This document shows positions 7,952 to 43,395 of a DNA stretch of 64,000 nt, piece by piece. The position numbers were made by a program, and so were the translations under genes. The stretch is from an uncultured Chitinophagaceae bacterium (GTDB lineage: Bacteria; Bacteroidota; Ignavibacteria; UBA10030; UBA8401). The notes under the pieces are model-generated. The model saw only the letters and a list, made by a program, of their open reading frames with translations. It made no database searches and had not been told where the DNA came from. Every line of letters begins with the position of its first letter. The stretch's first letter is position 1. The stretch lies in NCBI GenBank assembly GCA_964439265.1, contig CAYTOA010000002.1, forward strand, positions 46,589 through 110,588. The letters run 5' to 3'.

Positions 7952-8857
7952 ATGATTTCTCAAGAGTTTTTAGCTAAGATACCGATCTTCGAGAAGCTCT
8001 CTTCGGCTGATCTCGAAGTACTGCGTACACTCTGGCATCCCCGCGAGTTGAAAGCAAACGAGGTGCTTTTCCGGAAAGGGGAGAGCGGTTCTTCAATGTA
8101 TATCATCGAGGAAGGGACCATAGAGATCTCCGTTCCGGCGGAATTGGAGCGCAAGGACATTCGGGTGTCCCTCTTGAGCCAGGGGGAATTCTTCGGAGAA
8201 CTTTCTCTCGTTGACGGCCTGCCGCGGACTGCAAAGGCGACAGCCACGAGCGACACCCGTGTTCTGGAGATGATGCGCGACCACTTCATTCAATTTGTCA
8301 CCGGCCGCCCGACGGTCGCGATCTCAATGATCAGCGAGATGGGGAGGCGGCTCCGTGCGACGAACGATCTTGTGACCACGCTCGCATCGAAGAACGTGAA
8401 CGTTGAGATGGAAGACCAGCTGAGTTTTGGCGACAGGCTAGCGGACAAGGTTGCTGATTTTGTTGGAAGCTGGACTTTTGTGATTTATTTCTTTGCAGGC
8501 TTTCTCATATGGATACTCTTGAATGTCCTGGAATGGTTGTTCAGGCCGTTTGACGCGTATCCTTTCGTCTTTCTGAATCTCGTGCTTGCGGTGGTCGCAT
8601 CTCTTCAAGCTCCCTTGATCATGATGAGCCAGAATCGTGCACAAAAGCAGGATCGTCTAAAAGCGGACCTGGACTACCAGGTGAGCTTGAAATCAGAATT
8701 GATGCTTCAACAGCTGCACGTCAAGACAGACGAAATGCGGGCACTCGAGTTTCAAACAATGGAAGAGATCCTGAAGAAAGAACTTGCGTATATCCGGCAT
8801 CAATTGGAAGAAATTCACAACCTTCCTCCAAGCGACCCTCTGGAACGAACCCGCTGA
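7952..8857 (+). CDS. Cyclic-nucleotide-binding domain fused to a DUF1003 membrane domain
   Basis: The N-terminus has a cNMP-binding fold (FGELSLVDGLPRTATATA, RRL). The C-terminus has FGDRLADKVADFVGSWTFVIYF...YPFVFLNLVLAVVASLQAPLIMMSQNRQ..KDRLKADLDYQV, the DUF1003 signature. Confidence 0.8.
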   Translation: MISQEFLAKIPIFEKLSSADLEVLRTLWHPRELKANEVLFRKGESGSSMYIIEEGTIEISVPAELERKDIRVSLLSQGEFFGELSLVDGLPRTAKATATSDTRVLEMMRDHFIQFVTGRPTVAISMISEMGRRLRATNDLVTTLASKNVNVEMEDQLSFGDRLADKVADFVGSWTFVIYFFAGFLIWILLNVLEWLFRPFDAYPFVFLNLVLAVVASLQAPLIMMSQNRAQKQDRLKADLDYQVSLKSELMLQQLHVKTDEMRALEFQTMEEILKKELAYIRHQLEEIHNLPPSDPLERTR

Positions 8858-9369: not shown

Positions 9370-12300
9370 CTACCTCCCTCGCTCATTATTGTCAAAGATT
9401 TTTCGGATTGCCTTCCCTATGTCATCAACTCTAAACGGTTTCATAAGTATCTGGCGGACACCGAATGCCGTTGCCCGTTCCGGATTCAACTCGGTGCTGT
9501 ATCCGGTACAGAGAATGATGGGGAGGTCCTTTCTGAACTTCATTGTCTCTTTTGCAAGCTCGATACCCGTCATATGCGGCATTGTCTGGTCGGTGATCAG
9601 AACGTCAATATTGTTATCAGGCTTCTTTAGCAACGCCAAAGCATCCATACTGTCCGACATACCGATCACACCGTAGCCAAGAGGCGTCAGCATGTCAATT
9701 GCCATATCGACCATCATCTTTTCATCATCGACGAACAATATTTGTTCAGAACCGTGGAGTTCGAGCAGAACATCATCAGGTTCTGAATAGGATACAGATT
9801 CTTCCGCAACGGGGAAGAACAATTTGAATGTGGTGCCCTTCCCTAACTCGCTTTCGACAAGGATATTTCCTCCCAGCGACCGAATTACGCCCAGGACGAC
9901 GCTCAGCCCCATGCCCGTACCTTCATTAACGGCTTTGGTCGTGAAGAAGGGCTCAAACGCGCGAGAGAGAGTCGCCGCGTCCATGCCGCAGCCAGTGTCA
10001 GTCACCTGTATGACGGTGTATTCGCCGGGAGCGATCTCTCCTGTTTGACCGTATGTCGTCCGATCAAGGAAATGTCCGTAGAGGCGGACCGTCATCGTCC
10101 CTTTACGATGCATAGCATGGACAGCGTTCGTGGCCAGGTTCAAGAGCACTTCGTGTATCTTTGTGGGATCAGCGAGTACGGGTTTCGTATTCCGATCGAG
10201 GTCAACGTCAATGATTACCGACGAAGGGATCGAGGCCCTAAGGAGGTCGAGAGCTTCTTTGATTAATGGCCGGATGGATACGATCGATTTTTGAGAATTG
10301 GTCTTCCTGCTGAATGTCAATATCTGGTCGATCAAGTGCTTCGCCCGGTCTGTTGCTTTCAGGACCTTAAGGAGATTTCTCCGCAGCTTGGAATCCTTTT
10401 CCGTGAGTTGAAGCGACATCTCGGTATATCCCATAATGCCCCCCAGAACATTATTAAAGTCATGGGCAATACCTCCGGCAAGCGTACCAATGCTCTCCAG
10501 TTTTTGAGCCTGACGCAGTGAATCTTCGGCATGCTTGAGCTCAGTGATATCTTCTTTCACCGCGACGAAGTTCGTGATCACGTTGTTCTTATCCGTAACG
10601 GGCGAAATGGACGCCCTCTCCCAAAAAAGCTCGCCGTTCTTTTTCTTGTTGTGAAATTCGCCGCTCCAGTGATTACCCGCCAGGATCGTTTCCCACATTG
10701 TTCTGTATTCCTCTCTGCTCATCTCTCCGGATTTCAAAATGCGCGGGTTGTTTCCGCGAACTTCTTCGAACGTATAGCCCGTAATTTGCGTGAACTTCGG
10801 ATTGACGTATTCGATCGTGCCGGTTGGGTCGGTGATGACAATTGAAGCGGGGTTTTGTTCCACTGCGAGAGATAGTTTACGGAGCTCCATTTCCGCATTT
10901 TTTCGTTCGGTAATGTCGCGGATGATGACAAGTGAAAACACCTCTCCGTCGAGTTCGTACGTGGAGACGTTAACTTCGGTATCGAATTCCGTGCCGTCTT
11001 TCTTCATTCCCCGCATTTCATAGGCTTTGTCGACTTTTTCTCCGGCAGCCCGACGCTCCACGTTTCGGGCTATCTGCTCGCGATGGCTCCCGGCAATACT
11101 TTCAATGATGGAGGTTCCGATCATTTCCTCGGAATTGATAAAACCAAATAATCTGAGGTATGAAGGGTTCGCGTAAATATGGATCCCTTTCTTTGAAACA
11201 CCGATCGCATCCCTGGAACTATCGAACATTGCTCGAAATTTCGCTTCGCTTTCGCGCAACGCATCCTCCACGCGTTTGCGCTCGGTGGTGTCCCGATCGA
11301 TGCCAATGGTGTGAGGGTTACCACGCCACATGATGGGCACGCCAACATATTCAATGATATTGCTCCTTCCATCAGGACGAACCCATGAGAAAAGGCCTTG
11401 TAGAGGAGTGTTGCTGTCGACAGACCAGGCTTCATTGATGTTTGGCGAGTCTACCGCTGGCAGCTGAAGTGCCCGCGTATTCCCGATGGCCAACAGTTCT
11501 TCACGGCTTCGTCCTGCCATGGCGGCGTAGCGATTGTTGCATTCGATAAGCCGTCGTTTCAGGGGGTCGGGGTCCTCGCTGTAGATGCTGATGCCGTCAA
11601 GGACATGCTCAAACACAAATCGAAATTGCTCTTCAGAAGCGCGCATTTCCTCTTCAGCCCGTTTTCGATCGGTAATATCCCGGATGATCGAGAGTGCAAA
11701 AACTTCGCCGTTCAACTCGTACGAAGAGGTATTGACTTCAACGTCGAATTCCGTGCCATCGACTCTCACGCCTCGTGTTTCATAGAATTTAGGGACATCT
11801 TCTCCGGCAGCCCGGAGATGCGAATATCGGGATATGACGTCGCGGTGGGTCGGAGCAATAGCCTCAAGGATCGGCCTGCCGATCACTTGATCGCTATTCT
11901 CATAACCCAGCAGCTTTACACATGCGGAATTTACGTAGGTGTGGATCCCATTCTTCGAAACACTAAGGGCATCTCTAGAATTATCGAACATCGCGCGAAG
12001 CTTTGCCTCGCTTTCGCGCAGCGCCTCTTCCGCGTGCTTGCGTTCGGTGATATCCTCGATCATGCAGATCGCATATTGAGGAACCCCGTTTTCATCGCGT
12101 ACGAGCGATGCGTCAACAAGCGTCCAAATGATGTGGCCGTCTTTATGGAAGAAACGCTTTTCAATGTGATAATGTTGTCGTTTGCCGTTCAGCAACTCCT
12201 GATACAGAGTCATGTCCGCAGCGATATCGTCCGGATGAGTATGCTCAAGCATCGGTTTGCGATTTATCTCTTCGATGCCGTAGCCGAGGATCCGCTCCAT

Positions 12301-14916
12301 GGCTGGGTTGATTTCCAGGAAGCGTCCGGTGAGATCGCCGATTGCAAGTCCGATGTTGGCGCCTTCATATATTGACCGGAGACGTTCCCTGTTTTCATAG
12401 AGGAGTTTTTCAGTCTGTTTACGCTCCGTGATGTCTGCGACGACCCCATGCCATACCGCATCTCCATTGTCCAACAGCTCCGGTGTGGAGTCAATTCGTA
12501 CCCACTTGGGTATTTCTTTGACCTCGATGCGTCCCTCCCACGCAAAGGTTCGAGGCTCTTGAATGCGCTCGTTGTTCATTTTTACCAGCGAATCGATATC
12601 ATCGGGATGAATCGTTTGGAATGCGCATTGTGGGTTTGACAAAATGCTTTCCGCATCCACGCCGAGCAACTCCTCTATTTTTGGGCTGACGTAGTCGAAC
12701 GACATCGCACCATCTCGTGAGGTATGCAGGAGGTAAATGCCAACCGGAATATGAGCGGCCAGACTGTCGTATTGGTTTTTGCTCTTTACTAACGCCTTTT
12801 GTGCGCGTTGTATCTCCGTAATATCTCGCACCGTAGCATGGAGAAATGTTTTCCCCTCCACTTCCATTCGCGTGAGAAGCACTGTTGCGGGGAACTCATC
12901 ACCGTTAGCACGCTTGTGGGTCCATTCGAAGAAATGAGACCCGTTACGCATTGCAGTATCGATCATTTCTTTTGCCTTCTGATCCGATCTACGACCATCC
13001 GGCTGACGCTCCGGGGACACCTTTCCCAGCCCATACAAAAGAAATTCTTCCACGTTTTTCACTCTGAACATCTCCATCGTCGACTTGTTGCATGACGTGT
13101 ATGACCATGAAGGAGGAGTCAACGTCATCAGTGCGTCGCGCGAGCTTTCAAAAAGTGTTCGGAATTTCTTGTTGCTCTCTCTCAGCGCCTTTTCGTCCTG
13201 CTTGCGTTGAGAGATATCTCGCGCAATGACCACGATGCTCCTGGGCTGACCGTCGATGTCCCTGATGAAATCGCTGTTCACTTCTATGTCAAAGGTGCTG
13301 CCGTCTCTTCGGAGAGCACGGTATTCGTTCGAGCTGGCAATGGACGCATTAAGCTTGAGCGATATGTTCCGCAGTGCGCGCTCGCGATCTTCGGGAACCA
13401 GAAAATCAGTAATCAACAGGCCGAGGGCTTCTTCTGGTCGTTCAAAACCGAACATAGGAATCGCGATGGGGGAGACCATGATGATGCGCCCCTGCATGTC
13501 CGCTATCGTTATGTTGTCGGGAGATGCATGGATGATTGATCGGTATCGTTCTTCACTTTCACGCAACGCTTCTTCTGTTCGTTTCCTTTTTGTTACGTCG
13601 TTGAAGAGATGGGCGAATTGTCCTTTTCGGGGAGAGAAAACTCTTGTTTCATAGTAACGGCCCAGTGATTCATTGTAGCGTTCATACTCAATAGGCTCGC
13701 CGGATATCGCCACCTTGTACAATCGCTGCACTACTTCCGGGGGCCAGATGATCGGCAGATCTTTGCTTGTTCTTCCTATCAGGCTTGCAATGGTTAAACC
13801 AGTCATTTCTTCGAAAGCCGGATTACCGCCGATAAAGCGGTGGTCGCAGGGATTTCCCGACTCGTCGTAGATAACTTCGCAGACCATAATGCCGCTGAGA
13901 ATCTGGTCAAAGAGCTGCCGGTGTTTCTCCTCGCTATTCTGCAGGTCGATTTCCGCACGCTTGCGGTCGGTGATGTCGCGGAATGACCAGACTCTGCCAA
14001 TGTTCTTTCCGCTCAAGATGATCGGGGCAGAATAGCGCTCGAATATTCTCCCATCCTTGAAGTGCAAGACATCGCGATCCTCTGCGACGGAGGCGTGTAA
14101 CAATCGCACTTTGGAAATAAATGACTCCGGTTCCACCAACTCGTTCATCACATATCGTAAGATGACCTCAATATCTTTAGAATTGACAAGGGATTGAGGG
14201 ATATGCCACATTTCATTGAATCGCTGGTTCGTCCGAAGCACTCGCCCTTTTGCGTCGACTGCAAGGATACCGTCCGCCGTGGATTCCAGAATAACGTTTA
14301 ACTTGTTTTCTTTTTTCTGCAAAGCCTCTTCGATCAGCTTGCGTTCAGAGATGTCTTCGAGCGCCGAGATGAAATACCACGGGGTGCCGTCCTCGTGACG
14401 CACTAGTGATACTGACAAATTGGTCCAGACAACAGTCATGTTCTTGCGGAAGTATCTCTTTTCAGTTTTGAACGAGTTGCTCTGGTTGCTCAAAAAGGTC
14501 TCAAGGTGCGCAACGCTGCTTTGAAGATCGTCCGGATGGGTGAGATCCTGGAAGGACCTTGACATAAGTTCCTCCCGCGAGTATCCGAGTATGTTGCACC
14601 ACCGGTCGTTGATCTGAAGGAATGCGCCCTCAAGAGAAACGTGCGCTAATCCGACAGCAGCCTGGTTGAAGCTCTTCCGGAACTGATCGTCGGTTTGCCG
14701 GGAGGCATTCATCGGGCGCACATACAATAGATAGAGTAGGGGGAATGCAACTAGAGTCAACAGTGATGCCTGCGCGACGGTCGAGAATATTCCGGCAGAA
14801 GCTATGATGCTCGAGGGCAGCCGCATCATTGCCAGCTCGCACATAAAGATCGATCCGACCAGGAAGATGAGGGACGTAGTCGTATTTCTATCGGGTTTCC
14901 TGAATTTCATTCTCAT
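9370..14916 (-). CDS. Giant hybrid sensor histidine kinase: 2 TM, ~11 PAS/PAC modules, DHp, HATPase_c, receiver
   Basis: Eleven '(D/E)ITxRK..E..L' PAS-PAC linkers. H-box LESIGTLAGGIAHDFNN, G-boxes DTGCGMD / GTGMGLS, and a C-terminal receiver (ILFVDDE...DVLITDQTMP). Confidence 0.9.
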   Translation of the reverse strand: MRMKFRKPDRNTTTSLIFLVGSIFMCELAMMRLPSSIIASAGIFSTVAQASLLTLVAFPLLYLLYVRPMNASRQTDDQFRKSFNQAAVGLAHVSLEGAFLQINDRWCNILGYSREELMSRSFQDLTHPDDLQSSVAHLETFLSNQSNSFKTEKRYFRKNMTVVWTNLSVSLVRHEDGTPWYFISALEDISERKLIEEALQKKENKLNVILESTADGILAVDAKGRVLRTNQRFNEMWHIPQSLVNSKDIEVILRYVMNELVEPESFISKVRLLHASVAEDRDVLHFKDGRIFERYSAPIILSGKNIGRVWSFRDITDRKRAEIDLQNSEEKHRQLFDQILSGIMVCEVIYDESGNPCDHRFIGGNPAFEEMTGLTIASLIGRTSKDLPIIWPPEVVQRLYKVAISGEPIEYERYNESLGRYYETRVFSPRKGQFAHLFNDVTKRKRTEEALRESEERYRSIIHASPDNITIADMQGRIIMVSPIAIPMFGFERPEEALGLLITDFLVPEDRERALRNISLKLNASIASSNEYRALRRDGSTFDIEVNSDFIRDIDGQPRSIVVIARDISQRKQDEKALRESNKKFRTLFESSRDALMTLTPPSWSYTSCNKSTMEMFRVKNVEEFLLYGLGKVSPERQPDGRRSDQKAKEMIDTAMRNGSHFFEWTHKRANGDEFPATVLLTRMEVEGKTFLHATVRDITEIQRAQKALVKSKNQYDSLAAHIPVGIYLLHTSRDGAMSFDYVSPKIEELLGVDAESILSNPQCAFQTIHPDDIDSLVKMNNERIQEPRTFAWEGRIEVKEIPKWVRIDSTPELLDNGDAVWHGVVADITERKQTEKLLYENRERLRSIYEGANIGLAIGDLTGRFLEINPAMERILGYGIEEINRKPMLEHTHPDDIAADMTLYQELLNGKRQHYHIEKRFFHKDGHIIWTLVDASLVRDENGVPQYAICMIEDITERKHAEEALRESEAKLRAMFDNSRDALSVSKNGIHTYVNSACVKLLGYENSDQVIGRPILEAIAPTHRDVISRYSHLRAAGEDVPKFYETRGVRVDGTEFDVEVNTSSYELNGEVFALSIIRDITDRKRAEEEMRASEEQFRFVFEHVLDGISIYSEDPDPLKRRLIECNNRYAAMAGRSREELLAIGNTRALQLPAVDSPNINEAWSVDSNTPLQGLFSWVRPDGRSNIIEYVGVPIMWRGNPHTIGIDRDTTERKRVEDALRESEAKFRAMFDSSRDAIGVSKKGIHIYANPSYLRLFGFINSEEMIGTSIIESIAGSHREQIARNVERRAAGEKVDKAYEMRGMKKDGTEFDTEVNVSTYELDGEVFSLVIIRDITERKNAEMELRKLSLAVEQNPASIVITDPTGTIEYVNPKFTQITGYTFEEVRGNNPRILKSGEMSREEYRTMWETILAGNHWSGEFHNKKKNGELFWERASISPVTDKNNVITNFVAVKEDITELKHAEDSLRQAQKLESIGTLAGGIAHDFNNVLGGIMGYTEMSLQLTEKDSKLRRNLLKVLKATDRAKHLIDQILTFSRKTNSQKSIVSIRPLIKEALDLLRASIPSSVIIDVDLDRNTKPVLADPTKIHEVLLNLATNAVHAMHRKGTMTVRLYGHFLDRTTYGQTGEIAPGEYTVIQVTDTGCGMDAATLSRAFEPFFTTKAVNEGTGMGLSVVLGVIRSLGGNILVESELGKGTTFKLFFPVAEESVSYSEPDDVLLELHGSEQILFVDDEKMMVDMAIDMLTPLGYGVIGMSDSMDALALLKKPDNNIDVLITDQTMPHMTGIELAKETMKFRKDLPIILCTGYSTELNPERATAFGVRQILMKPFRVDDIGKAIRKIFDNNERGR

Positions 14917-15021: not shown

Positions 15022-15609
15022 TCACTTGATTATTGCGCGATGTTCTCTATTTCTCAGTTTGACAATGACGGGTTTCACCTGACTCTCGTAGCAATCCGGA
15101 CATATTCCATGTGAAAATGCGGTGTCGGTTTTTTGCTTGATATGTTTCTCGATGGATACCCACGTATCGTCATCTTGTCGTATCCTTCGGCAGTAAGAAC
15201 ATATCGGCAAGATCGAATGAAGCTGTCGTATCTCGTGCTGCATTCCTAATATACGTTCTGCAACGCGTAAACGTGCTGAGAGCTGTTCAGAATCAAATGG
15301 TTTCGTGATAACGTCGTCTGCGCCGGCGTTCATTGCTTCAAGATAGCTCCCTTTTCCGCGCAGGATTGTCAAGAATATTACAAAGGTGTAGGATTCTCTA
15401 TTCTCCTGGCGGATCATGCGTGTCAGCTCAAGGCCGTTCAAGTTCGGCATCATCCAGTCGGTGATGACGAGCCTCGGGTTCTTCGCCTGGAAGATACTCC
15501 ATGCTTCCTTACCGTCAGCGGCGACGTAAACTTCGTGGTTAAGTTCCTGGAGTTGTTCTGACAAGAGCATTTGAGTGACGATGTCATCCTCAACAACAAG
15601 TATTTTCAT
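15022..15609 (-). CDS. Response regulator: receiver + coiled-coil + Cys/His-rich C-terminal module (CxxC-N26-HGxCxxC)
   Basis: Receiver motifs KILVVEDD...[13 protein letters not shown]...KPF, then [40 protein letters not shown]. Its start overlaps the upstream kinase's stop (ATGA at 15606-15609). Confidence 0.85.
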
Positions 15610-17861
15610 TGGAATTCTTCCTTTGGGATGTACGTTGCAAGCTCCGTTGCCGCTTGCGTAAACAAATTTTCAAGGGTCTCAATCAGGCTAGCCGATTCTT
15701 CGATGGATTCATTCATATCCAGATGTTCAATTTCCTCGCAGGCTTTTGCCAGTTGAAAGGCGCCAATTTGGGCGCTGCTTCCGCGTAAAGAATGTGCAAC
15801 CTTTCGCACTTGGGTCATGTCTCCGGAACGTGCCCAGTCTCGCATTGCGGCGATCCTCAATGGAACATCATCCCTGAACTTGCGAATGACACGCTCCAGA
15901 AGACTTGGTCGTGATTTTGTCTTGATGCTTGCAATCTCCTGAATTCTCGCCCTGTCGATGACATTGTCAGCATACGGCGGACCGGATGTCGAAACGGCGC
16001 ATTTCTTCTGGAGGGTTTTCCGAGTTCCCCAATAGCGTGCACTCCATTTTTCCATCATCTCGAGAAGTTCCACCCGTTTGAACGGTTTCGCGATATAATC
16101 ATCCATGCCGGCCCGCATGCACCGTTCCCGGTCTCCTTCAAACGCATTTGCGGTCATCGCTATGATGATCGCTTTTTTGTCTGGGCTTTCATGGTCACGG
16201 ATGCGACGAGTTGATTCATACCCATCCATGACAGGCATCTGACAATCCATAAAAATAATATCGAAAGGGGAGCGTTCGTTTTTCTCCACGGCAGAAAGCC
16301 CATCCGGGACGACGGTTACCTGAAATCCGAGTTTCGTGAGAATGGCGGTGGAAACCTCCTGGTTGATCTGGTTATCTTCTGCAATTAGAATGCGGATTCC
16401 TTTGTTTGAAGATTCAAAACCATCGGGCCTGGAATCCGGGATAATTATTTCCGCCGCCGTGCGTTCGTGTTGTAAAGACTCGTTCATGATCGGCTGCGAC
16501 GAAGCAGGAACATGACTCTGCATCTGGTTGCGCAGAGGGATCGTAAACCAAAAAGTACTCCCTTCTCCGGGAAAGCTATTGACTCCTATGTTGCCGCCCA
16601 TGAGTTCCACGAGTTGTTTGGATATTGCAAGCCCGAGCCCTGTCCCGCCGTATTTTCGTGTTGTCGATCCGTCGCCTTGCGTGAAGCTTTGGAATAAGTT
16701 CGCCTGCACATCGGCGGGGATGCCAATACCCGTGTCAGTCACCGAGACCGTAATCATCGATTTTACTTCATCCCGGTTATCCGCGGCGGCACTCACGGTA
16801 ACAGACCCGTGCTCCGTGAATTTTATCGCATTTCCGACGAGGTTCATAACAATTTGCCGGATCCGAAGCGAATCTCCGCAATACTCCGTGATTGAATCCA
16901 GAGAGTACTCACAAATGAGTTTCAGCCCTTTTTGATCTGCTTTGCCCTCAAGAATCTCAACGACGTCGCGAATAACCTGAACAAGGTCGAATGCGACGTT
17001 TTCGATAAGCAGCTTGCCCGCTTCGATCTTAGAGAAATCAAGAATGTCGCTAATGATCGCCAGGAGTGCGTCTCCTGATGTACGGATGAGCATCGCGTAC
17101 CTTCGATCTTCTTTCCCTAGTTCAGAATCCATGAGAAGTTCTGACATGCCGATGATCCCACTCAAGGGAGTCCGCAGTTCGTGGCTCATGTTGGCTACAA
17201 ATTCGGACTTCAAACGAGATGCGCGTAACGCCACATCCTTGGCCTCCATAAGTTCCTTTGTTCTCTCTTCTACTTTTTGTTCGAGAAGCCTGTTCTGATT
17301 GCTGATACGCTGATAGAGTTCAAGCTGTTCAAGTGCGACCGTCGTTTTGTAAAGAATAATTGACATAAGGCTAAGGGCCATCTTGTTCGGAATCGTCTCA
17401 GGGTTCCTGGCTATACCGACGAACATGCCGATGACTTTCCTTTGCGTCTCAAGACCGTGTAATACAAAGATGCGGGCATCGTTCCTGGACGGTATGGGAA
17501 TGGGCCTGTTCTGATGTAATGCCCAGCCGAAAAGCCCTTCTTCGATAAGTTCGTCAACTTCCTTTTGAACGGACTCCCTTTCGCGGGGCGGCTCGACATT
17601 ATCGAGCAGAAACTCGTTGCTCGTTTCGTTTGGCCGAAAAAAAACAAAAGTTTCAAATCCGACGAGACGGCCGAGGTGTTCACAGGCTGCCCTGTAGATC
17701 GCATCCTTATCCCGGTTAAAATCGATAAAGGACCGCACTTCATCGAAGGCTGAGACTTCTTCGAAAGATTCCAGCATCCATTGATTTGTTTCTTCGAGGT
17801 AGCGAACCCGTTCCAGCAGCGAGTCGACGCTCGGCTTGGTATTCTTATCTTCGTCCAGCAT
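15606..17861 (-). CDS. Hybrid histidine kinase: GAF-like, HisKA, HATPase_c, receiver, Hpt
   Basis: H-box [14 protein letters not shown]-boxes DTGIGIP / GGTGLGLAI, receiver [12 protein letters not shown]...[13 protein letters not shown], and Hpt [15 protein letters not shown] prefer the start at 17861 (TGATG overlap with the HDOD stop) over the 50-codon extension in the track. Confidence 0.9.
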
Positions 17862-18733
17862 CAACCCCCCTTGTGAAACATGTTTAGGACGCCTTCCAGT
17901 TGCCGATCGACGAGATCGAAGATCTGGGGAAGAAATCCCGGATTCAATCCCAATATTTTCCATGCATCTTCGTCGATGGGGGGGACAAAGAACTCCCCGC
18001 TGTTTCCACACTGCATTGAATGTGCGATGGCATCTGCAATGTGAATAACGTACGCTTCCTGCCGATAGCGGTCAGCGTTCCGGGGTATATGGTGATAACG
18101 GACAACTTCCTCCAGGCTGCCTGGCAGCTTCCATGCTTCGATCAATGCCGCGCCGACTGCCGCATGATCATAGCCGATAATTTCCTGTTCAGTCGTGAAC
18201 ATCGGCTGCGGACGCTCGGCCGCGCGGGTAAAGACCTTGTCCATCAGGTCAGGTATCTTGTCGTACATGAGAAGTCGTCCGACGTCGTGGAGGATGCCTG
18301 CAACAAAAAATCGTTCGACGTTTGATTCACGATTGAGACCTGCAAGGACCCTCGCTGCGAGGCCGCAAGCGACGCTGTGTTTCCAAAACGTCTCCATGGA
18401 AACAAAGCGTTCGGGTATACTTCTGAAAAGAGTCACAATAGAGGTAGCGAGAGTAAGGTCATGAAGCTGCTGCGTACCGACCACCATGACGGCGCGCGAG
18501 ATGGTATCGATCTTTCGAGGAAAACCAAAATATGCGCTGTTCACGATGCGCAGGAGTCTTGCGGTAAGTCCCGCATCTTGCATGATGATGGAGGTGATCT
18601 GCCCGACGGTAGTTCGCTGGCTGAAAATTGCTTCGTTCAGGCGTTCGTGTACGACCGAGACAGAAGAGAGTCTTTCAGTGCCGTCTAAAAGATCCCGCGG
18701 ACTGCTGAACACGTTTAACCTCCTTCTGTCCAT
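17861..18733 (-). CDS. HDOD domain protein
   Basis: [45 protein letters not shown] and [10 protein letters not shown]...[18 protein letters not shown] are typical HDOD signatures. Confidence 0.85.
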
Positions 18734-19056
18734 GACATTGCGATTCTATTCGTTGCCAATCGTATTAGTTCTTTCACAAAAATGTTGTTCCGGTCCGCGT
18801 GTTGAAATAGTGTTTCCGCTTTGGCTGCCGCCTCCATCATGATCCGAGCGTCGACGTGAGATTCCTGCGAGATGCTGTGTACAGCTGCGCTCTGCTCGTC
18901 AATGCTTATTTCGAGAATGCCCCACGTTTTCAGGATCTTAATCCCATTGTGAGTTATGACAGTTCCTTTCTGCAAAAGAATCGTCCCGCGAAGATCGGTT
19001 ACCGTGTCCTCGACGATCATTCCCTCACAAAGTTGATTGATGCCAATTTTTGCCAA
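18715..19056 (-). CDS. Small protein resembling the N-terminal DUF3391-type domain of HD-GYP/HDOD regulators
   Basis: IGINQLCEGMIVEDTVTDLRGTILLQKGTVITHNGIKILKTWGILEISID follows the 'L.pGM.l..dv....G..Ll..G..it...i..L...gi..v.I' pattern. It uses a TTG start preceded by GAGG and overlaps the HDOD gene by 19 nt. Confidence 0.5.
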   Translation of the reverse strand: MAKIGINQLCEGMIVEDTVTDLRGTILLQKGTVITHNGIKILKTWGILEISIDEQSAAVHSISQESHVDARIMMEAAAKAETLFQHADRNNIFVKELIRLATNRIAMSWTEGG

Positions 19057-21213: not shown

Positions 21214-24200
21214 TCAAAAATCTGAAGAAGCACCAATTAATATCCTCGAAACTTTTTCCATGAGCGCACTCGGCTTGTAGGGCTTTTGTATGAAGGAGTG
21301 AGGGAGGATGTCGCCGAATACAGATCGAATCTCCTCTTCCGTGTAACCGGAGCAGAGAAGCACATTTACGTCGCTGTTGATCTTGAGAAGTTCGTGAAAA
21401 GCGGTCTTGCCATCCATGCCCGGCATGGAGTAATCTAAGACCACCAGCAGAATGGATTCTTGGTGTTGGCGGTAGAGTTCAATCCCCTCGATCGGATCTA
21501 AGGCCTTGATCACTTTAAAACCTGCATCCGTGAAGACATCCGTCAATAACTCAAGCACGGAAGGTTCATCGTCAATCACGAGGACGGTTTTTCCCTCACC
21601 GTCAAGCGCAGGAATCTGTTTCGTCTCTTGCGATTTCGGTTTCAATAAAGGCTGGACCATCGGGAACACAACGTCAAATTCACTCCCTTTACCGCTTTCG
21701 CTGTGAATGCGGATCCCTCCATGGTGCCCACGTATGATTCCAAGCACTGCGGCGAGGCCCAGTCCTCGTCCGGTAAATTTTGTCGTAAAGAACGGGTCAA
21801 AGATCCGCGCCAGCAATTCCGGCTTGATCCCGTGTCCCGTGTCGTTCACCTGGAATGAAACGTAAGGGCCGGGTGGAAGGGAAATGTTGGTATACCTGGA
21901 GTATTCCTTCGCGTTCAACGCGATTTCAATTTGACTGGTGTGAACGGTGATAGAGCCCGGATTTGTGCCGAGCGCCTCGCCCGCATTGATGATAAGGTTC
22001 ATGACAACTTGTTGGATCTGGCCTACGTCGCCCCGCATGCAAAGGGGTGTGCGGTCGAGGTCGTACAGCAGGTGGGCCGACTTTGGTATGGACACTTCCA
22101 GCAGCTGTGCGTTTTCCTCTACCAACCGGTTGAGATCGAAATCATCGGTTAGAAATTTTCCTTTTCCCGAGTAGGCGAGTAACTGTCGTGTCAGATCTGC
22201 GGCCCGCTCGGCTGCCTTGAGGACTTTTGCGATGTTGTTGCCGGCCGGACTTTCTTTCGGGAGCTTGCCGAGGGCCAGAGATGATTGCCCCATGATGGCA
22301 TTGAGGAGATTATTGAAATCGTGAGCGATACCGCCCGCAAGGGTACCGATGCTCTCCAACTTTTGTGCATGGCGAAGCGCCTCCTCTGCGCGCTTGCGGT
22401 CCGTGATATCTTCTTTCACGGCAAGGAAATTAGTCACTACGCCGTCCTGGTCCTTGACGGGGGAGATTGACGTTATTTCCCAAAAAAGTTCGCCGTTTTT
22501 CTTTCTATTATGGAATTCACCGCGCCAATCCTTGCCGGCAGTGATGTCCTGCCACAATCTTCTGTACTCTTCCGGCGATGTCTCTCCGGATTTTAATATG
22601 TTGGGTTTTTTCCCGATGGCTTCGTCCATGGTGTAGCCCGTAACTTGTGTAAATTTCGGGTTGACGTATTCGATATTTCCCTGCGTGTCGGTGATAACAA
22701 TGGAAGCCGGGCTTTGTTCGATGGCGATGGAAAGCTTGCGCAGCTGCCGTTCAGCTTCTCTGCGTTCCGTGATGTCATGGATAATTGAAAACAGGTGTTG
22801 TTTTCCATCCAACATAATTGGGGAGGAATGCACTTCCACGCTGCGCACTGCGCCGTTTGCAAGGCGATGTGCAAAAATGAATGAGCTCTTTTCACTCACC
22901 AGCGCTCGCGACAGCTCCGCTTGGACTTCTCCTGCCGCCATCATGTTGATATTCTGTATGGACATTCCTCGTAACTCGTTTACGGAATATCCATAAAACC
23001 TCTCTGCAGCCGGATTGGCATCGTTGATCTCGCCGGACACGGGCTCGATAAGGAGCATGACGGCATCGTGCATCTCGAACATACTGTGAAACCGTTCCTC
23101 ACTTTCCCGCAACGCCTCCTCGGCGCGCTTTCGCTCTGTGATATCCTGGACAAGTCCGTGAACGTAATGGCGGCTTCCCACTTCCAGCGACGACCCGGTG
23201 ATGAGAGCAATAAAGGTCGAACCGTCTTTCCGCATAAGTTCGACTTCTCTTTTGCCCGACTCACGTTGATCGGCAACCCGGCTGAATAACTTCAGGGAAG
23301 AGCGCTTCGGCATGAGATCGATGACGCGCATCGCAAGAAGCTCTTTTTCTGTGTACCTCGTCATCCTGCAGAATGCCGGATTGACCATGATGTAACGACC
23401 GTCCAGATCGGCGATAGTGATCCCTTCATTGCTTTGTTCGACCGCGGCGCGGTAACGGAGCTGGCTTTCACGCAGCGCTTCCTCCGTTCGTTTACGCTCC
23501 GAGATATCGCGGACGATAAGCTGCACAGCGGGTCGGTTGCCGAAGGTCACCGGCAGAGCTTTTACTTCGACGTCGACGTCCGTCCCGTCCAGCCTCACAA
23601 ATTTCTCCTCCAGGAGCGGAAGCGGATCGTTCGATAATAATGCTTCCTTCATCCTCTCAATAATCATCTGCCGGTACTCAGGATGAACGAGATCGAGGAC
23701 CGGCGTTCCGATCAACTCCTCCATACCCGATGCTCTTACAAGAGCGACGCTGGCGCTGTTCGCAAAAACAATCTTTCCGTCGACGTATATCGCAATGCCG
23801 TCGGGGAAGCCTTCGACGAGTTGGCGGTAATTTAGTTCGCTTTCCTGAAGCGCTTGTTCTGCCTCTTTCCGCTCAGTGATGTCCTGGACAAGGCCGTCGT
23901 AAGCAGCGATCTCCCCCGTTTCATCGCGATGGAGAACAAACGTGTTTCTTACCCAGCGCAACGATCCGTTTTTATGCACGATTCGGTGCTCGAGAGGGGG
24001 GGGGATTTTGCCGGCCATGATCAGCCGCGCTTGTTCCTCCACAACGGGACGGTCTTCGGGGAACACCATGTCGATCCAGAGGTAGGGTTGGTCTTTGAAC
24101 TCATCGGGCTGGTAACCGGTGATAGAGACACATCCCGGTCCATGGTCTGTATTGGTAACTTTTCCTTCTTTCACATGCGCGGTATAGATGTAGTCAGTGA

Positions 24201-26310
24201 TCGCCGCAATGATTCTCTGGTAACGATCCTCGCTGTCGCGAAGTGCGTCTTCGAACTGCCTGCGTTCCGTAATATCCCTTACGGCCGCCATTCGCAAATG
24301 CTTCCCCTGATAAAAAATTGGTTTTGAAAATACTTCGAGAATCAGCCGCGTGCCGTCCGAACGGATCGCACCGGTTTCGAAGTGAGTCTCGTCACCAGAA
24401 GAGATGTGCTGACGAAGTGAGGTGTGCATTTCGGTCGCCGAAAAATCGAGCAGTGATTTGCCGATGGCCTGCTTCCTGGTATAACCGAGCATTCGGCACA
24501 TCGCCTCATTGACCTCGACGATCACTCCATTGTCCTGGATCGCAATTCCTTCGACTGTCGCTCCCCACAGTTCGCGGAACTGGGATTCGCTTGCCCGAAG
24601 CGCGATTTCTGCCATTTTGCGCTCGGTGATATCTTCCACGGTGCCATCATAATAGAGTATCTTGCCGTGAGAGTCCCGGATTGCACGGGCGCTTTCTCTT
24701 ACATAGATGACCGAGCCATCGTGACGAGTCCAGGCACTCTCCAAGCCATTGACCTCTCCATCCTGTTCCACACGGTCGATAAATTGTCTTCTTTCATACG
24801 ATGGTTCGAAGCCTTCCCGTTCGAGATTCCTTGCTGCCAGTTCTTCGAATGTGGAGTAGCCAAGTTTCTTGACGAGTGAAGGATTTGCCAGAATTATTAC
24901 TCCGTCTGGCGTTGTCCGGTACAGGCCGAGACTTGAATTTTCGTAGATCGAACGAAAGCGTTCCTCACTAGCCCGCAGTGCTTTGTCTGCCTCCTTGCGT
25001 TCGGCGATATTTCTTGCGGTTGTGTGCATATAGAGCACGCCCGCTATCAAAATGCGCTTGTTATTAAACTCTGCGTCGACTTTTGAACCGTCTTTGCGGA
25101 GGATCTTCGCCTCGCTTGCGATTTCTTCTCCATCGAAGATCTTATTGTTGTAGGTTGTATACGCGGTTAAATCGAGCTGGTCATGAAGATCGGGAATCTG
25201 CATCCCGAGGAGCTGCTCTCGAGAGTAGCCGGTGAGTTCACAAGCGGCGTTGTTGACGGCGACAAACCGGGAATCCGTGTCTGAGATGAACACGGAATCT
25301 CGTGAGCCTTCAAAAATGGCTTCCTGCCATTCGAGGGCTTGCCTTAAACTCTCTTCTCCATGCTTGCGTGCGGTGATGTCCTGGATATGGGTGATGAAGC
25401 ATTGAGGGCGGTGTTGTGCGTCTCGAATGAGGGAACTTGAGATGCTCGCCCAAATAATGTTTCCCTGTTTGTGGAGATACCTTTTTTCAAGTTTGATTTT
25501 TTCCTCTCCGCGGGTTTCATGGCGGCTGAGAAAGTCCAAGGTCAGTGCCATGTCGCCCGGATGCGTTATCTGTGAAAGAGTCATTTGTTCAAGCTCTTCC
25601 TGGCTGTAACCAAGAATCTCACACAGCGCATTGTTCACTCTAAAAAATTGTCCGTCAATACTTGTCAGGCTCATTCCCACATTTGCGTTTTCGAAGGCAA
25701 GATGAAATCGCTCTTCAATTCCTTCCAGCGTGCCCGGGAGCAATTCTAAAGGAGCTGCAAACGTGATCGAGATTCCGCAGACAACAACGATCATGACGAT
25801 CCAGGCAAGGGGAGACCGAATGTAGAGGAGAGGCGACGTGCCATAATCAAGCCAGCCGCCGACAAAAAGAACCGCTGTGATCGAGAGGAAGAGAAAAAGG
25901 AAGGCAATGCTCGCGTACGCAGTCTTCCGGTGGCCGAGCATCATCAGGTAGAGAGTAATAGCCGGCGCGATAACGAGCGCTGCAGACATAAGACCCAATG
26001 TAACGACTCCTGAGACAAGGATTAGTGCGAGCATGATGATCATCATCACCGCGAACGTCTCAGGCCGAGTACTTTTTCTTCGAAGGAAGAGAATCGTCAT
26101 TACGATCGCGAGCAGTACGTGGAGATACATGACAGGCCGGACTCCCAAGATCGGAATTCTAGCGATTGTAAGGATGGCGTTAATCAGGATGGCCGCAAAG
26201 AACAACGGAATGAATCGACGCGTGATGTTGTTTCGCAATGATTCAACAGAAATGTGGAGATTCTGTCCGTCGGGTTTCAAAGGATTTATCCTTATGGGTT
26301 CAATTCTCAA
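21214..26310 (-). CDS. Giant hybrid sensor histidine kinase: ~6 TM N-terminal region, ~9 PAS/PAC modules, DHp, HATPase_c, receiver
   Basis: Nine 'DITERK..E.AL' linkers. H-box LESIGTLAGGIAHDFNN, G-boxes DTGHGIK / GRGLGLAAV, and receiver VLVIDDEP...LVVLDYSMPGMDG. The start is uncertain because 26310 is a TTG. Confidence 0.9.
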   Translation of the reverse strand: MRIEPIRINPLKPDGQNLHISVESLRNNITRRFIPLFFAAILINAILTIARIPILGVRPVMYLHVLLAIVMTILFLRRKSTRPETFAVMMIIMLALILVSGVVTLGLMSAALVIAPAITLYLMMLGHRKTAYASIAFLFLFLSITAVLFVGGWLDYGTSPLLYIRSPLAWIVMIVVVCGISITFAAPLELLPGTLEGIEERFHLAFENANVGMSLTSIDGQFFRVNNALCEILGYSQEELEQMTLSQITHPGDMALTLDFLSRHETRGEEKIKLEKRYLHKQGNIIWASISSSLIRDAQHRPQCFITHIQDITARKHGEESLRQALEWQEAIFEGSRDSVFISDTDSRFVAVNNAACELTGYSREQLLGMQIPDLHDQLDLTAYTTYNNKIFDGEEIASEAKILRKDGSKVDAEFNNKRILIAGVLYMHTTARNIAERKEADKALRASEERFRSIYENSSLGLYRTTPDGVIILANPSLVKKLGYSTFEELAARNLEREGFEPSYERRQFIDRVEQDGEVNGLESAWTRHDGSVIYVRESARAIRDSHGKILYYDGTVEDITERKMAEIALRASESQFRELWGATVEGIAIQDNGVIVEVNEAMCRMLGYTRKQAIGKSLLDFSATEMHTSLRQHISSGDETHFETGAIRSDGTRLILEVFSKPIFYQGKHLRMAAVRDITERRQFEDALRDSEDRYQRIIAAITDYIYTAHVKEGKVTNTDHGPGCVSITGYQPDEFKDQPYLWIDMVFPEDRPVVEEQARLIMAGKIPPPLEHRIVHKNGSLRWVRNTFVLHRDETGEIAAYDGLVQDITERKEAEQALQESELNYRQLVEGFPDGIAIYVDGKIVFANSASVALVRASGMEELIGTPVLDLVHPEYRQMIIERMKEALLSNDPLPLLEEKFVRLDGTDVDVEVKALPVTFGNRPAVQLIVRDISERKRTEEALRESQLRYRAAVEQSNEGITIADLDGRYIMVNPAFCRMTRYTEKELLAMRVIDLMPKRSSLKLFSRVADQRESGKREVELMRKDGSTFIALITGSSLEVGSRHYVHGLVQDITERKRAEEALRESEERFHSMFEMHDAVMLLIEPVSGEINDANPAAERFYGYSVNELRGMSIQNINMMAAGEVQAELSRALVSEKSSFIFAHRLANGAVRSVEVHSSPIMLDGKQHLFSIIHDITERREAERQLRKLSIAIEQSPASIVITDTQGNIEYVNPKFTQVTGYTMDEAIGKKPNILKSGETSPEEYRRLWQDITAGKDWRGEFHNRKKNGELFWEITSISPVKDQDGVVTNFLAVKEDITDRKRAEEALRHAQKLESIGTLAGGIAHDFNNLLNAIMGQSSLALGKLPKESPAGNNIAKVLKAAERAADLTRQLLAYSGKGKFLTDDFDLNRLVEENAQLLEVSIPKSAHLLYDLDRTPLCMRGDVGQIQQVVMNLIINAGEALGTNPGSITVHTSQIEIALNAKEYSRYTNISLPPGPYVSFQVNDTGHGIKPELLARIFDPFFTTKFTGRGLGLAAVLGIIRGHHGGIRIHSESGKGSEFDVVFPMVQPLLKPKSQETKQIPALDGEGKTVLVIDDEPSVLELLTDVFTDAGFKVIKALDPIEGIELYRQHQESILLVVLDYSMPGMDGKTAFHELLKINSDVNVLLCSGYTEEEIRSVFGDILPHSFIQKPYKPSALMEKVSRILIGASSDF

Positions 26311-27048: not shown

Positions 27049-29682
27049 TCAGGCCGGATCCTTACGAGGGAAAATATCCGGGTAGAGATTGTTTGCACAA
27101 TCGGGACAAAGCCCATGGGAGAATTTGGCTTCGGAGTGACTTTGGATATATCCTTCCAAAAGATCCCAGTATCCCCTGTCATTCCGGATTTTCTTACAGC
27201 TTGAGCAGATCGGAATTAATCCGCCGAGAACTTTAATACTCGTCAGGGCTTCCTGGACCTTCAGTTCTAACTCCCTTTTTCTTTTGATGAGTTGCCACAT
27301 TCGAAGCAGATAGAAACCGATTGCGCATCCGACGAATAGAAGCAGGACCAGAGTGTAAAACCAGTATGTCTGATAGAAATGAGGCTCGAGAATAAACGCA
27401 AAGGCTGCCCCGGTTTCATTCCATACGCCGTCATTGTTGCAGGCCATTACACGAAATCGATACTTACCAGGCGGAAGGTTTGTATAATATGCCACGCGGC
27501 GCGTTCCTGCATCAACAAACTCGCGGTCAAATCCTTCCAGCATGTACTTGAATCGGACCCTCTCAGGTACCAGGTAGCTCAATGCAGCATACTGAAATTC
27601 CAGTTTCTCGGTCCCGGGTGAGAGCGAGCAAGAATCTCCGGGAGCGATAACTTGGAGGTCCGCAATCACATGCTTAATAAACGTCGGCGGAATGAGTCCA
27701 TTTCTATTGAGTGATTTCGGATCGATCACCACGGCTCCCTTCCTAGTTGCAAACCAGAGCCGTCCGTCGTGAGTTCTGCAGGCAGCCGGCTGCCACGAAG
27801 GAATACACTCTTCCGTTTTCATTCCGTCAGCCTCGTCAAAAACCTGGGTATGGATGCCGCTGCTTCGGCCTGTTTCGAAATCATCGAGTTCCTGGCGCGA
27901 CACATGTCCGATTCCCCGTGGACTGCTCAGCCAGAGATCTCCTGCATCGTCTTCTAAGACGCAATAGATTTCATCATTGAACAATCCGACTTTTGTGTTG
28001 TACTTGGTAAACTTTCCCTCATGGAATCGGGTCACTCCTCCGCGAGGTGAGGCAATCCATAAGCTCCCTCGTCCGTCGTCAAGAATGGAGTTAACCCAAG
28101 AATCGGCCAATCCGTCAGCCGGGCCAAAGGTCTTCACCTCCCCGTCTCGGACTCTAAGCAGTCCATTCGATGTCCCGATCCACAGTGTGCCGCTTGCATC
28201 GAGAAAGAAACAGCTGACGTAATCAACCGGCACAAATGGCACACCTTTTTTCAATTCGTACGGCATTAGTTTTCCATCTTTGAATCTTCTTATGCCTACA
28301 TAGTTGATATATAGAAGAATACTTTCCGTATCCTCGCCGATCGCCGTAATCCAACGCATCGGCATCCCGGCGCTCGTATCATACTGTTTAAGTCGTCCGT
28401 CTTTCACTACTGACAAAAATCCGGTTTGCGCGACCCATAATCTCCCATCATGCGAAACAAATGCGGGTCCTACCGGAGTCTTTATCTCGGACAGCTTGCC
28501 GTTCTTCATTCGAGTGATGCTGAACGTCTCGTCACTGAGAAGATACAAACTTCCGTCTGGTGTCTCTGCGACGCTTGAAATGTAGTTGCTGACAAGGCCC
28601 TCTTTCGTAGAATACGGCGTTACGTTGACATCCTTAAACCTGTTCAGGCCGTCAACCGTGGCCACCCACAGGCTTCCCTCACGATCTTCGACAATCGACA
28701 TGACGTAATTATTGCTTAACCCGTCAGTCTCTGTGAATGATGTCCATTTTCCCGCGCTGTATCTGTTCAGCCCGCCTTTACGAGTGCCGACCCAAATATT
28801 TCCGTCCCGGTCTTCGAAGATGACAGTGACCTGTTCATTTGAAAGTCCGTCAGCAGTCGTAAAGGCTTTCATCAATCCATCGCTCCAGCGAACCAGTCCT
28901 TGGTATCCGCCAATCCAAATATCTCCAGCTTTGTCGGCACAAAGGGCGGTGACGTATTGACGGCGTCCATGGATTGTGACCTGCATGGACTGCGTTACCG
29001 AGTCTCCTTGCAGGATGCGTACTCCGTCTGGTGTGCCTACCCAAACTCTTCCTTCCGAATCCTCGGTAATCCCGGTTACATAGGGTGGAGCAACTGGGAC
29101 ATCCAGAAATCTGTCACCGTCCAACCTGTAGAGCCCGTACGAGGTTCCCGCCCAAATATGTTTTGACGAGCTCTGATGGAGTGCATTCACATTCCTGCTC
29201 TTGATGCCTTCGGATTCGCCATAACGGTAGATCTTTCCATTTTGTAATCGACAAAGTTGATTAGCAAAAGTACCAACCCATAGACTGCCATCGCCGGATT
29301 CGCACAATGATGAAATGGCTTCGCGGTTGACATTGTCGCCTGTAATCGTGCTCACAGACTCAAACGTCTCTCCATCAAAGCGAAACAGGCCGGCGGTCAT
29401 TCCAAACCAAAGGTAGCCGTCTGAAGTCTGCAGGCATGCGTTGACGGCGCTGCCCGGCAGGCCGTTTTGCTTGAGCCATTTGTCGTGCACATACTGATCG
29501 ATGGTCTTTTTCGGATCTAATGCATAGAGGTGTGAGATCGGGAATATGAGCGCGATGACAACAAGTGCCGAGAGGAGAGTCCTGTAACTAAAGCGCTTCG
29601 CGTCATTGCCGTGTTTCACGACGTGTATCGCTTCGCGTCTTCGTCTATTGTGTTCTGAGTCCATAAGAGTGTCCAAGGTCAC
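27049..29682 (-). CDS. Periplasmic two-component-regulator propeller (Reg_prop repeats) + Y_Y_Y domain sensor; one TM, coiled coil and a Cys/His-rich C-terminal module; no kinase or cyclase domain
   Basis: Repeated 'D..G.lWvGT..GL.r' blades. Y_Y_Y region FKYMLEGFDREFVDAGTRRVAYYTNLPPGKYRFRV. TM helix YWFYTLVLLLFVGCAIGFYLL. It ends IPICSSCKKIRNDRGYWDLLEGYIQSHSEAKFSHGLCPDC. The start could be the GTG at 29682 or the ATG at 29664. Confidence 0.85.
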   Translation of the reverse strand: MTLDTLMDSEHNRRRREAIHVVKHGNDAKRFSYRTLLSALVVIALIFPISHLYALDPKKTIDQYVHDKWLKQNGLPGSAVNACLQTSDGYLWFGMTAGLFRFDGETFESVSTITGDNVNREAISSLCESGDGSLWVGTFANQLCRLQNGKIYRYGESEGIKSRNVNALHQSSSKHIWAGTSYGLYRLDGDRFLDVPVAPPYVTGITEDSEGRVWVGTPDGVRILQGDSVTQSMQVTIHGRRQYVTALCADKAGDIWIGGYQGLVRWSDGLMKAFTTADGLSNEQVTVIFEDRDGNIWVGTRKGGLNRYSAGKWTSFTETDGLSNNYVMSIVEDREGSLWVATVDGLNRFKDVNVTPYSTKEGLVSNYISSVAETPDGSLYLLSDETFSITRMKNGKLSEIKTPVGPAFVSHDGRLWVAQTGFLSVVKDGRLKQYDTSAGMPMRWITAIGEDTESILLYINYVGIRRFKDGKLMPYELKKGVPFVPVDYVSCFFLDASGTLWIGTSNGLLRVRDGEVKTFGPADGLADSWVNSILDDGRGSLWIASPRGGVTRFHEGKFTKYNTKVGLFNDEIYCVLEDDAGDLWLSSPRGIGHVSRQELDDFETGRSSGIHTQVFDEADGMKTEECIPSWQPAACRTHDGRLWFATRKGAVVIDPKSLNRNGLIPPTFIKHVIADLQVIAPGDSCSLSPGTEKLEFQYAALSYLVPERVRFKYMLEGFDREFVDAGTRRVAYYTNLPPGKYRFRVMACNNDGVWNETGAAFAFILEPHFYQTYWFYTLVLLLFVGCAIGFYLLRMWQLIKRKRELELKVQEALTSIKVLGGLIPICSSCKKIRNDRGYWDLLEGYIQSHSEAKFSHGLCPDCANNLYPDIFPRKDPA

Positions 29683-42331: not shown

Positions 42332-42363
42332 GAAGAGTGTAATTCGAAAAGGAGTACAAGAAA

Positions 42364-43380: not shown

Positions 43381-43395
43381 TACCACAGGAATGGA

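Follow-up and report, generated by a model that had tools for sequence, protein, structure and literature searches.

What does a response regulator act through when its receiver (REC) domain is followed by nothing that a domain library recognizes? The question is raised by a 195-aa protein encoded in the 64 kb window, by which we mean the whole stretch of DNA analyzed, for which PF00072 is the sole match in Pfam and NCBIfam, in keeping with the original prediction that this regulator carries no DNA-binding or enzymatic domain. That prediction, made from the letters alone, placed the output instead in a Cys/His-rich segment (CxxC-N26-HGxCxxC) that recurs in a sensor protein of the same window. 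Both segments are present on the minus strand (Table 1) and the spacing is right, with 37 residues from the first to the last Cys. Both also lie near the C-terminus, although neither protein strictly ends with the module as had been proposed, 22 residues of the regulator and 15 of the sensor extending beyond the last Cys.

Table 1. Coordinates in the window of the two module-bearing proteins, of their parts and of the genes preceding the regulator
Feature	Coordinates	Strand	Basis or remark
195-aa response regulator (REC + module)	15022-15609	-	ORF translation
REC domain of the regulator, residues 3-114	15268..15603	-	PF00072, E 1e-26
REC alpha5 into coiled-coil neck of the regulator, residues 110-134	15208..15282	-	AF2 helix, heptad conservation
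Module copy 1, LPI + C137-x2-C140-x26-H167-x2-C170-P-D-C173	15091..15210	-	Pattern scan, BLASTP, profile
C-terminal tail of the regulator, residues 174-195	15025..15090	-	Predicted AF2 helix 171-194, starting at the CPDC knuckle
Hybrid histidine kinase, HisKA-HATPase_c-REC-Hpt	15606..18011	-	Pfam; likely phosphodonor of the regulator
HDOD/HD protein, head of the same gene string as the regulator	17861..18733	-	PF08668, E 1e-59
877-aa transmembrane Reg_prop/Y_Y_Y sensor	27049-29682	-	ORF translation
Extracytoplasmic part of the sensor, including TM helix 773-793	27366..29682	-	Pfam, hydropathy scan
Cytoplasmic helical neck of the sensor, residues 794-822, RMWQLIKRKRELELKVQEALTSIKVLGGL	27217..27303	-	Fits family neck consensus LxxALxxVKxLxGL
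Module copy 2, IPI + C826-x2-C829-x26-H856-x2-C859-P-D-C862	27097..27216	-	Pattern scan, BLASTP
ANNLYP tail of the sensor after module copy 2	27052-27096	-	'LYP' form, typical of non-REC members

The REC domain of the regulator (AF2 pLDDT 93-98) bears the phospho-acceptor D51 together with T81 and K103-P104, residues that, with the PF00072 profile match, place the protein among REC-domain regulators; because they are invariant in 120 homologues, the domain looks phosphorylatable. The closest named homologues among the matches listed share 63-82% identity, are called 'response regulator' and come from Bacteroidota and Ignavibacteriales MAGs, which tentatively suggests an Ignavibacteria-like source for the window. 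In the sensor, Pfam identified Reg_prop (ten repeats, E 8e-58) and Y_Y_Y (residues 703-763, E 2e-17), and a hydropathy scan placed an N-terminal anchor at residues 36-55 and a TM helix at residues 773-793 (27304-27366), so that the cytoplasmic portion amounts to only 84 residues: neck, module and short tail. When the two whole host proteins were compared by BLASTP only the module region aligned, ungapped, with 21 of 48 residues identical (44%) and an E value of 2e-14, which puts the match far beyond chance and supports the proposal of a near-superimposable segment in an otherwise unrelated sensor. A six-frame search of the window for the regular expression C-x2-C...SHG-x-C-x2-C gave two matches and no more, 15091-15201 and 27097-27207. 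Copy 1 corresponds to residues 134-173 of the regulator and copy 2 to residues 823-862 of the sensor, reading IPICSSCKKIRNDRGYWDLLEGYIQSHSEAKFSHGLCPDC.

The module unit spans ~60 residues and is composed of a neck of two to four heptads (LxxALxxVKxLxGLLP), a Cys4 mini-domain and a short tail. Counting from the first Cys, the frame C1-x2-C4-x9-W14-x19-C34-x2-C37 is fixed in 483 unique modules, and the four Cys and one Trp are invariant in the family; in unfiltered profile-selected alignments the invariant columns are a Pro, both CxxC pairs, the Trp and the His. Conservation of the remaining positions was counted in 160 modules chosen with a pattern that demands four Cys and the His, where R8 and D10 are each kept in 154, Y20 in 152, E18 in 150, G32 in 147, F29 in 142 and S30 and P35 each in 141, figures that come from the best-scoring matches listed and are biased upward. 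The FSHG just ahead of the second knuckle is near-invariant. A second His, at position 24, is found in 305/483 modules, among them copy 2 of the window; copy 1 is without it. Two tail forms follow the last knuckle, CPxCYExHVxPxL in 120 REC-type homologues and CPDCxKKLYP in 125 members, and the form 'CPDCYE..V.P' is typical of the REC-linked subfamily.

The original prediction had set one His beside the four Cys, and here the Cys stood whereas the His proved variable: H31 is present in 446 of the 483 unique modules, and the 37 exceptions retain all four Cys. Because these 37 keep the complete Cys set, H31 is not needed for the fold, and the putative metal site is therefore likely Cys4. The loss of H31 is found mainly in one copy of tandem two-module proteins, of which the matches listed (P0004-P0046) contain 41 distinct clusters with an [input-module]x2 organization, often MASE6-module twice. 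All 82 copies in these tandem proteins carry the four Cys and the Trp, while H31 survives in 35 of the C-terminal copies but in only 13 of the internal ones, and 40 of the 41 proteins have it at least once; some tandems with near-identical halves (P0004, P0007) could be assembly duplications. One intact and one degenerate copy is what would be expected if two modules make one functional unit, a pseudo-dimer in which one site must stay intact. The tandem pattern marks the FSHG His as a putatively functional, and not structural, residue. In the internal module of the tandem proteins this His is usually replaced (by S, E, T and others), with every Cys kept.

A profile of five sequences was run with HMMER against 1.84 billion cluster representatives, a search suggested along with the original prediction; it returned 23,965 clusters (50% identity) at E<=1e-3 and 19,302 at E<=1e-10. 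A word-index homology search with the 74-aa tail gave 3 matches, a number that reflects the limit of that method and not the size of the family. When the pattern was sought in a single genome for each GTDB species, at least 600 matches emerged, of which 586 stretches were confirmed and 80 loci kept; among the matches listed, the kept loci come from MAGs of many phyla, namely Gemmatimonadota, Acidobacteriota, Verrucomicrobiota, Cloacimonadota, Desulfobacterota/Geobacterales, Spirochaetota, Ignavibacteriae, Planctomycetota, Armatimonadota and KSB1, along with some Gammaproteobacteria. Only one plasmid match was found (locus L089:4001-4138, Dongshaea marina plasmid NZ_CP028898.1), an unannotated module remnant cut off from a GAF-domain gene by an IS21 insertion, which indicates a disrupted GAF-module gene; plasmid copies were dropped as a lead, a single IS21-disrupted remnant being uninformative.

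No model of Pfam-A 2025 or NCBIfam 20.0 covers the module, whether whole proteins or isolated tails were searched, the best sub-threshold Pfam matches of the isolated tails being Rua1_C (18.3 bits against a cut-off of 27) and zf-C4pol (14.3 bits), and none of 240 (120+120) homologues among the matches listed has a precomputed Pfam domain over it. In their source records the homologues are called just 'response regulator' or 'hypothetical protein', or they carry COG-derived labels for the REC part. Profile searches of the PDB with 5- and 46-sequence alignments returned noise (DsbC, glutamate dehydrogenase, L36; E>0.01), and a full-text literature search that included motif strings found no description of the module, only an analogue, HalOD2, and the unrelated Cys4 site of FixT. 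The module is thus a large bacterial signaling family missing from curated domain libraries, and the earlier statement that it has no characterized function agrees with the databases and literature searched.

The portability that had been suggested for the module is borne out by the domains that precede it. Among 82 proteins from genomes, the window regulator being counted with the 81 of the genome loci, the upstream domain is REC in 59, and PAS, GAF, MASE3, MASE6, 7TMR-DISM, VUPS, dCache_1 or Tll0287-like in the rest, to which the tandem proteins add PocR and Reg_prop/Y_Y_Y; architectures were visible for the best 150 of ~24,000 clusters. In the 81 genome loci 3-57 residues separate the module from the C-terminus, and in tandem proteins one copy is internal. 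Since all of the partner domains are input domains, the module fills the slot usually taken by a kinase, GGDEF or DNA-binding domain. We did not count 'stand-alone' module proteins of 63-104 aa as a separate architecture. Two of the three examined on long contigs overlap the upstream gene by 44-62 nt, and such ORFs probably arose when a frameshift split a fused gene. The two overlapping cases (L087:4241-5291 and L088:4610-5270) are 89-96-aa module ORFs on long-read contigs that overlap a Tll0287-like or REC gene; the stand-alone protein of locus L086 may be genuine.

The connection between input and module is strikingly regular in length. From the Lys of the REC KP motif to the first Cys of the module we counted 34, 41, 48 or 55 residues in 185 of 186 cases, and in a diverse genome set all 55 of 55 cases fit these classes (n=20, 7, 27 and 1, respectively). 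The window regulator, with 34 residues from K103 to C137, belongs to the commonest class overall. Among PAS proteins, 44 have the DIT motif 35 residues ahead of the first Cys and 1 has it 42 residues ahead. Across the 24 residues before Cys1 in 262 diverse members, a set from which close relatives of the window protein were excluded, conserved hydrophobic positions fall at -3/-4, -7, -10, -13/-14, -17, -20/-21 and -24, with strongly hydrophobic residues in 94-100% of members at -17, -10, -7, -4 and -3 and in 76% at -13, and a conserved Ala at -14. Linker steps of seven and an a/d pattern, the two features of a signaling helix, are both found in the module family, and in the AF2 model of the full-length regulator REC alpha5 is predicted to continue as one unbroken helix (107-131) into the module. 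As far as sequence goes, this regularity shows that REC and PAS inputs are helix-coupled to the module, apparently rigidly; it shows the coupling, and not what the moved module does. The quantized linker lengths imply that the geometry of whatever sits at the helix end matters. The conserved heptad pattern and the quantized length of the helix feeding the module are new. Together with the position of the module and its standing as the only cytoplasmic element of the sensor, the heptad-quantized coupling to REC and PAS backs the output role that had been proposed.

The closest parallel to this coupling is found in the Rec-GGDEF cyclases, for which Teixeira et al. described discretized linker lengths and an axxdexx heptad tied to a coiled-coil register switch (PMC8041772). 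As in these cyclases (DgcR, WspR; PMC8041772), REC alpha5 of the module proteins passes into a coiled-coil linker and the distance from KP to the output changes in seven-residue steps, and the L-x-x-A-L-x-x heptad at -17 to -11 resembles the ambiguous a-x-x-d-e pattern of the Rec-GGDEF linker (PMC8041772). In both systems the output presumably acts pairwise. By analogy with Rec-GGDEF we infer a parallel dimer and a register switch for the module proteins. Unlike in Rec-GGDEF, the output at the end of the helix is not a GGDEF enzyme; it is a Cys4 mini-domain of ~45 residues that carries no catalytic motif.

Two single-chain AlphaFold models, one of neck plus module (pLDDT 83.5) and one of the full-length regulator (pLDDT 90.1), were used to evaluate the suggested likeness of the module to a zinc ribbon or treble clef. 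In the full-length model the first CxxC knuckle is predicted to be followed by a beta-hairpin (142-144 and 150-152) that bears R8 and W14, a short helix (153-161), the FSHG loop and then the CPDC knuckle, from which the last helix (171-194) starts. This predicted order of knuckle, hairpin, helix and second knuckle at a helix N-terminus fits the suggestion but for the extra helix 153-161, and as modeled the fold is treble-clef-like with an inserted helix; a corresponding fold in the PDB did not emerge, the best Foldseek match of the module model having an E value of 4.6.

Small Cys4 sites that act by protein-protein contact are familiar from the N-terminal ZBD of ClpX and the C4 finger of DksA/TraR, in both of which the last two ligands lie at a helix N-terminus; DksA is coiled-coil-associated, the ClpX ZBD is dimeric, and the Cys spacings are x17-x18. 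The module, as modeled, would share with them the small Cys4 site, the last two ligands at a helix N-terminus and the coiled-coil association, and differs from them in its x29 spacing and in having no Pfam match at E<=1 and no PDB sequence or fold match. Membership of the DksA/TraR C4 zinc-finger family itself (PF01258; C-x2-C-x17-C-x2-C) was rejected on this spacing and on the absence of a PF01258 match at E<=1. The ZAS anti-sigma motif (H-x3-C-x2-C) likewise places a His a few residues ahead of a CxxC in a small Zn site, but the module reads H-x2-C-x2-C with two more Cys 30 residues upstream and a His that is dispensable for the fold, and a ZAS anti-sigma domain was rejected given this motif and the lack of any zf-HC2 or anti-sigma model match in Pfam and NCBIfam.

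The gene surroundings bear on what the regulator listens to. The stop codon of the HisKA-HATPase_c-REC-Hpt kinase overlaps the regulator start codon (ATGA, 15606-15609), and the order HDOD, kinase, regulator is repeated on other metagenomic contigs with an identical regulator; HDOD was not seen as a recurrent neighbor in other phyla. An unannotated 113-aa ORF (18715-19056, minus strand) overlaps the HDOD gene start by 19 nt and may be the first gene of this string. Downstream, a 1,848-aa multi-PAS hybrid kinase follows the regulator after 105 nt. When the neighbors within two genes of ~80 loci were clustered, a histidine-kinase-like protein, at 29 loci, was the sole neighbor to recur across lineages, and no other conserved neighbor was found in that range; synteny was otherwise lineage-specific, with thymidylate kinase and an S41 peptidase in Cloacimonadota and DUF255 in Opitutae. 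With only kinases as conserved neighbors, the genomes give no pointer to the partner of the module.

The window is rich in signaling genes beyond this string. Over a span of ~20 kb it encodes two giant hybrid histidine kinases and the HK-REC-Hpt kinase, together with the REC regulator and the TM sensor that bear the two module copies. The giant kinases (9370-14916, minus strand, 1,848 aa; 21214-26310, minus strand, 1,698 aa) carry many PAS domains and a C-terminal REC and share a near-identical PAS segment, SPASIVITD..GxIEYVNPKFTQ(I/V)TGYT. Just past the downstream PAS kinase lies a cNMP-binding + DUF1003 signaling protein (7952-8857, plus strand). Elsewhere, a TonB-dependent receptor (35982-39212) precedes four consecutive ORFs of 741, 287, 338 and 440 aa (39246-44718, plus strand) that are Pfam-negative at E<=1e-5.

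We favor, at a probability of about one half, a reading in which the module is a metal-stabilized, coiled-coil-driven, paired protein-interaction output, with metal, dimer and partner deduced from sequence and single-chain models. Two chains would form a parallel coiled coil and so hold next to each other two metal-stabilized modules, with Zn(Cys)4 as the most likely site. Phosphorylation of REC by the adjacent hybrid kinase would shift or rotate this coiled coil, as in the Rec-GGDEF cyclases, and ligand binding in PAS, GAF or periplasmic sensors would do likewise. Such a movement would alter the presentation of the paired modules, whereupon the conserved FSHG/R8/D10/E18 surface would bind or release a partner protein. 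The window regulator would then be the end of an HDOD / HK-REC-Hpt / REC-module phosphorelay, and the 877-aa sensor a one-component transmembrane version of the same output.

Two other readings are unlikely to similar degrees. In the first, the module is a nucleic-acid-binding zinc finger and its host proteins are regulators of transcription or translation, for which the output position and the basic residues after the first CxxC speak. The original prediction had drawn attention to these residues, and a conserved K5-K6-x-R8 patch (KKIR) does follow the first knuckle, but the net charge of the 37-residue core as a whole is negative, averaging between -0.8 and -2 in the different sets, and this weakens the hint of nucleic-acid binding that the patch gives. 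A precedent exists in HalOD2, an archaeal regulator output with two CXXC motifs for which DNA or RNA binding has been proposed (Galperin et al. 2018, PMC5847659), which resembles the module in having a helical segment after REC followed by two C-terminal CXXC motifs and a predicted Zn finger (PMC5847659). Set against the published description of HalOD2, the two are distinct in spacing and hosts: the HalOD2 motifs lie 20-25 residues apart versus 29 in nearly all module members, and HalOD2 is described from a few halobacteria only, with no His/Trp signature (PMC5847659), whereas the module hosts are bacterial. Further against this reading, many members are membrane-anchored with ~30 residues from the TM helix to the module, no helix-turn-helix or other known nucleic-acid-binding model of Pfam or NCBIfam matches, and the ~80 loci show no conserved adjacent target genes.

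In the second, the module is a redox-active iron site, either a rubredoxin-like Fe(Cys)4 or an interchain Fe-S cluster, serving as a second redox or oxygen input or as a stability switch. The ligands of rubredoxin, Cys6/9/39/42, give C-x2-C-x29-C-P-x-C, the very spacing of the module, with the same CPxC second knuckle. The module differs from rubredoxin in having no Gly after each knuckle (K5 after the first; Y/A after C37) and, in the model, predicted helices where rubredoxin has loops and strands. Homology to rubredoxin, an idea that came from the equal Cys spacing, was rejected, as hhalign aligned 9 columns of the first knuckle only, at a probability of 0.9%, and no rubredoxin model (PF00301) matched at E<=1. 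A conserved His close by might supply a further ligand, anaerobes are numerous among the hosts (Desulfobacterota, Cloacimonadota and Ignavibacteria-like MAGs, for example), and FixT sets a precedent in which a Cys4 Fe-S site controls the stability of the receiver protein, though from inside the REC domain (PMC7078487). An iron site of this kind would leave the host proteins without any output, including the TM sensor, which has no cytoplasmic element besides the module. Nor is the module rare in Gemmatimonadota, Acidobacteriota and Verrucomicrobiota, which are largely aerobic; it is common there too.

Still less likely, in our judgment, is that the module is a purely structural clasp and that the true signaling surface lies elsewhere, for instance in a REC acting as a CheY-like single domain. 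Single-domain receivers that act through protein contact are well known, the module is small, and its invariant residues (four Cys, Trp and Pro) are mostly structural; a clasp would, however, leave the strong conservation of the non-core polar residues R8, D10, E18, S30 and H31 (in the pattern-selected set that requires Cys and His) without a reason, as it would the selective retention of the His in at least one copy of tandem proteins and the existence of membrane sensors with nothing else in the cytoplasm, and it sits poorly with quantized linkers that give weight to the geometry at the helix end. A localization or degradation tag, exposed by the signal and read either by a protease adaptor or by a landmark at a pole or in the membrane, would be a special case of partner binding and accords with the position near the C-terminus, but the evidence for any particular protease or landmark is absent, tails past the last Cys differ between subfamilies, and we consider it highly improbable.

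A broader and more tentative proposal, which we hold to be possible but less probable than the favored reading, is that the module may be the docking end of an undescribed route by which dozens of sensors per genome (REC, PAS, GAF and membrane receptors) would converge on one common cellular target, working via two Zn modules that the signal gates as a pair and that share a conserved FSHG/Arg/Asp/Glu surface. If true, many non-model phyla would possess a third general logic of output, next to phosphotransfer and the synthesis of second messengers. The framework of modular sensors and helix-coupled outputs is known; the output itself is undescribed in the databases and literature searched. Signal-transduction censuses class bacterial proteins by output domain, and because the module is absent from Pfam and NCBIfam, thousands of proteins are named only 'response regulator', 'PAS domain protein' or 'hypothetical', so that their outputs go unseen, above all in Gemmatimonadota, Acidobacteriota, Verrucomicrobiota, Cloacimonadota, Desulfobacterota and Ignavibacteria-like bacteria. 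The heptad-quantized coupling indicates that the mechanical link of the module to its input is the kind that a true effector has, and the one-His-per-pair pattern of the tandem proteins singles out one concrete residue, the FSHG His. The metal and the partner, once known, would give function to a large block of signaling 'dark matter' and could reveal a new output mechanism.
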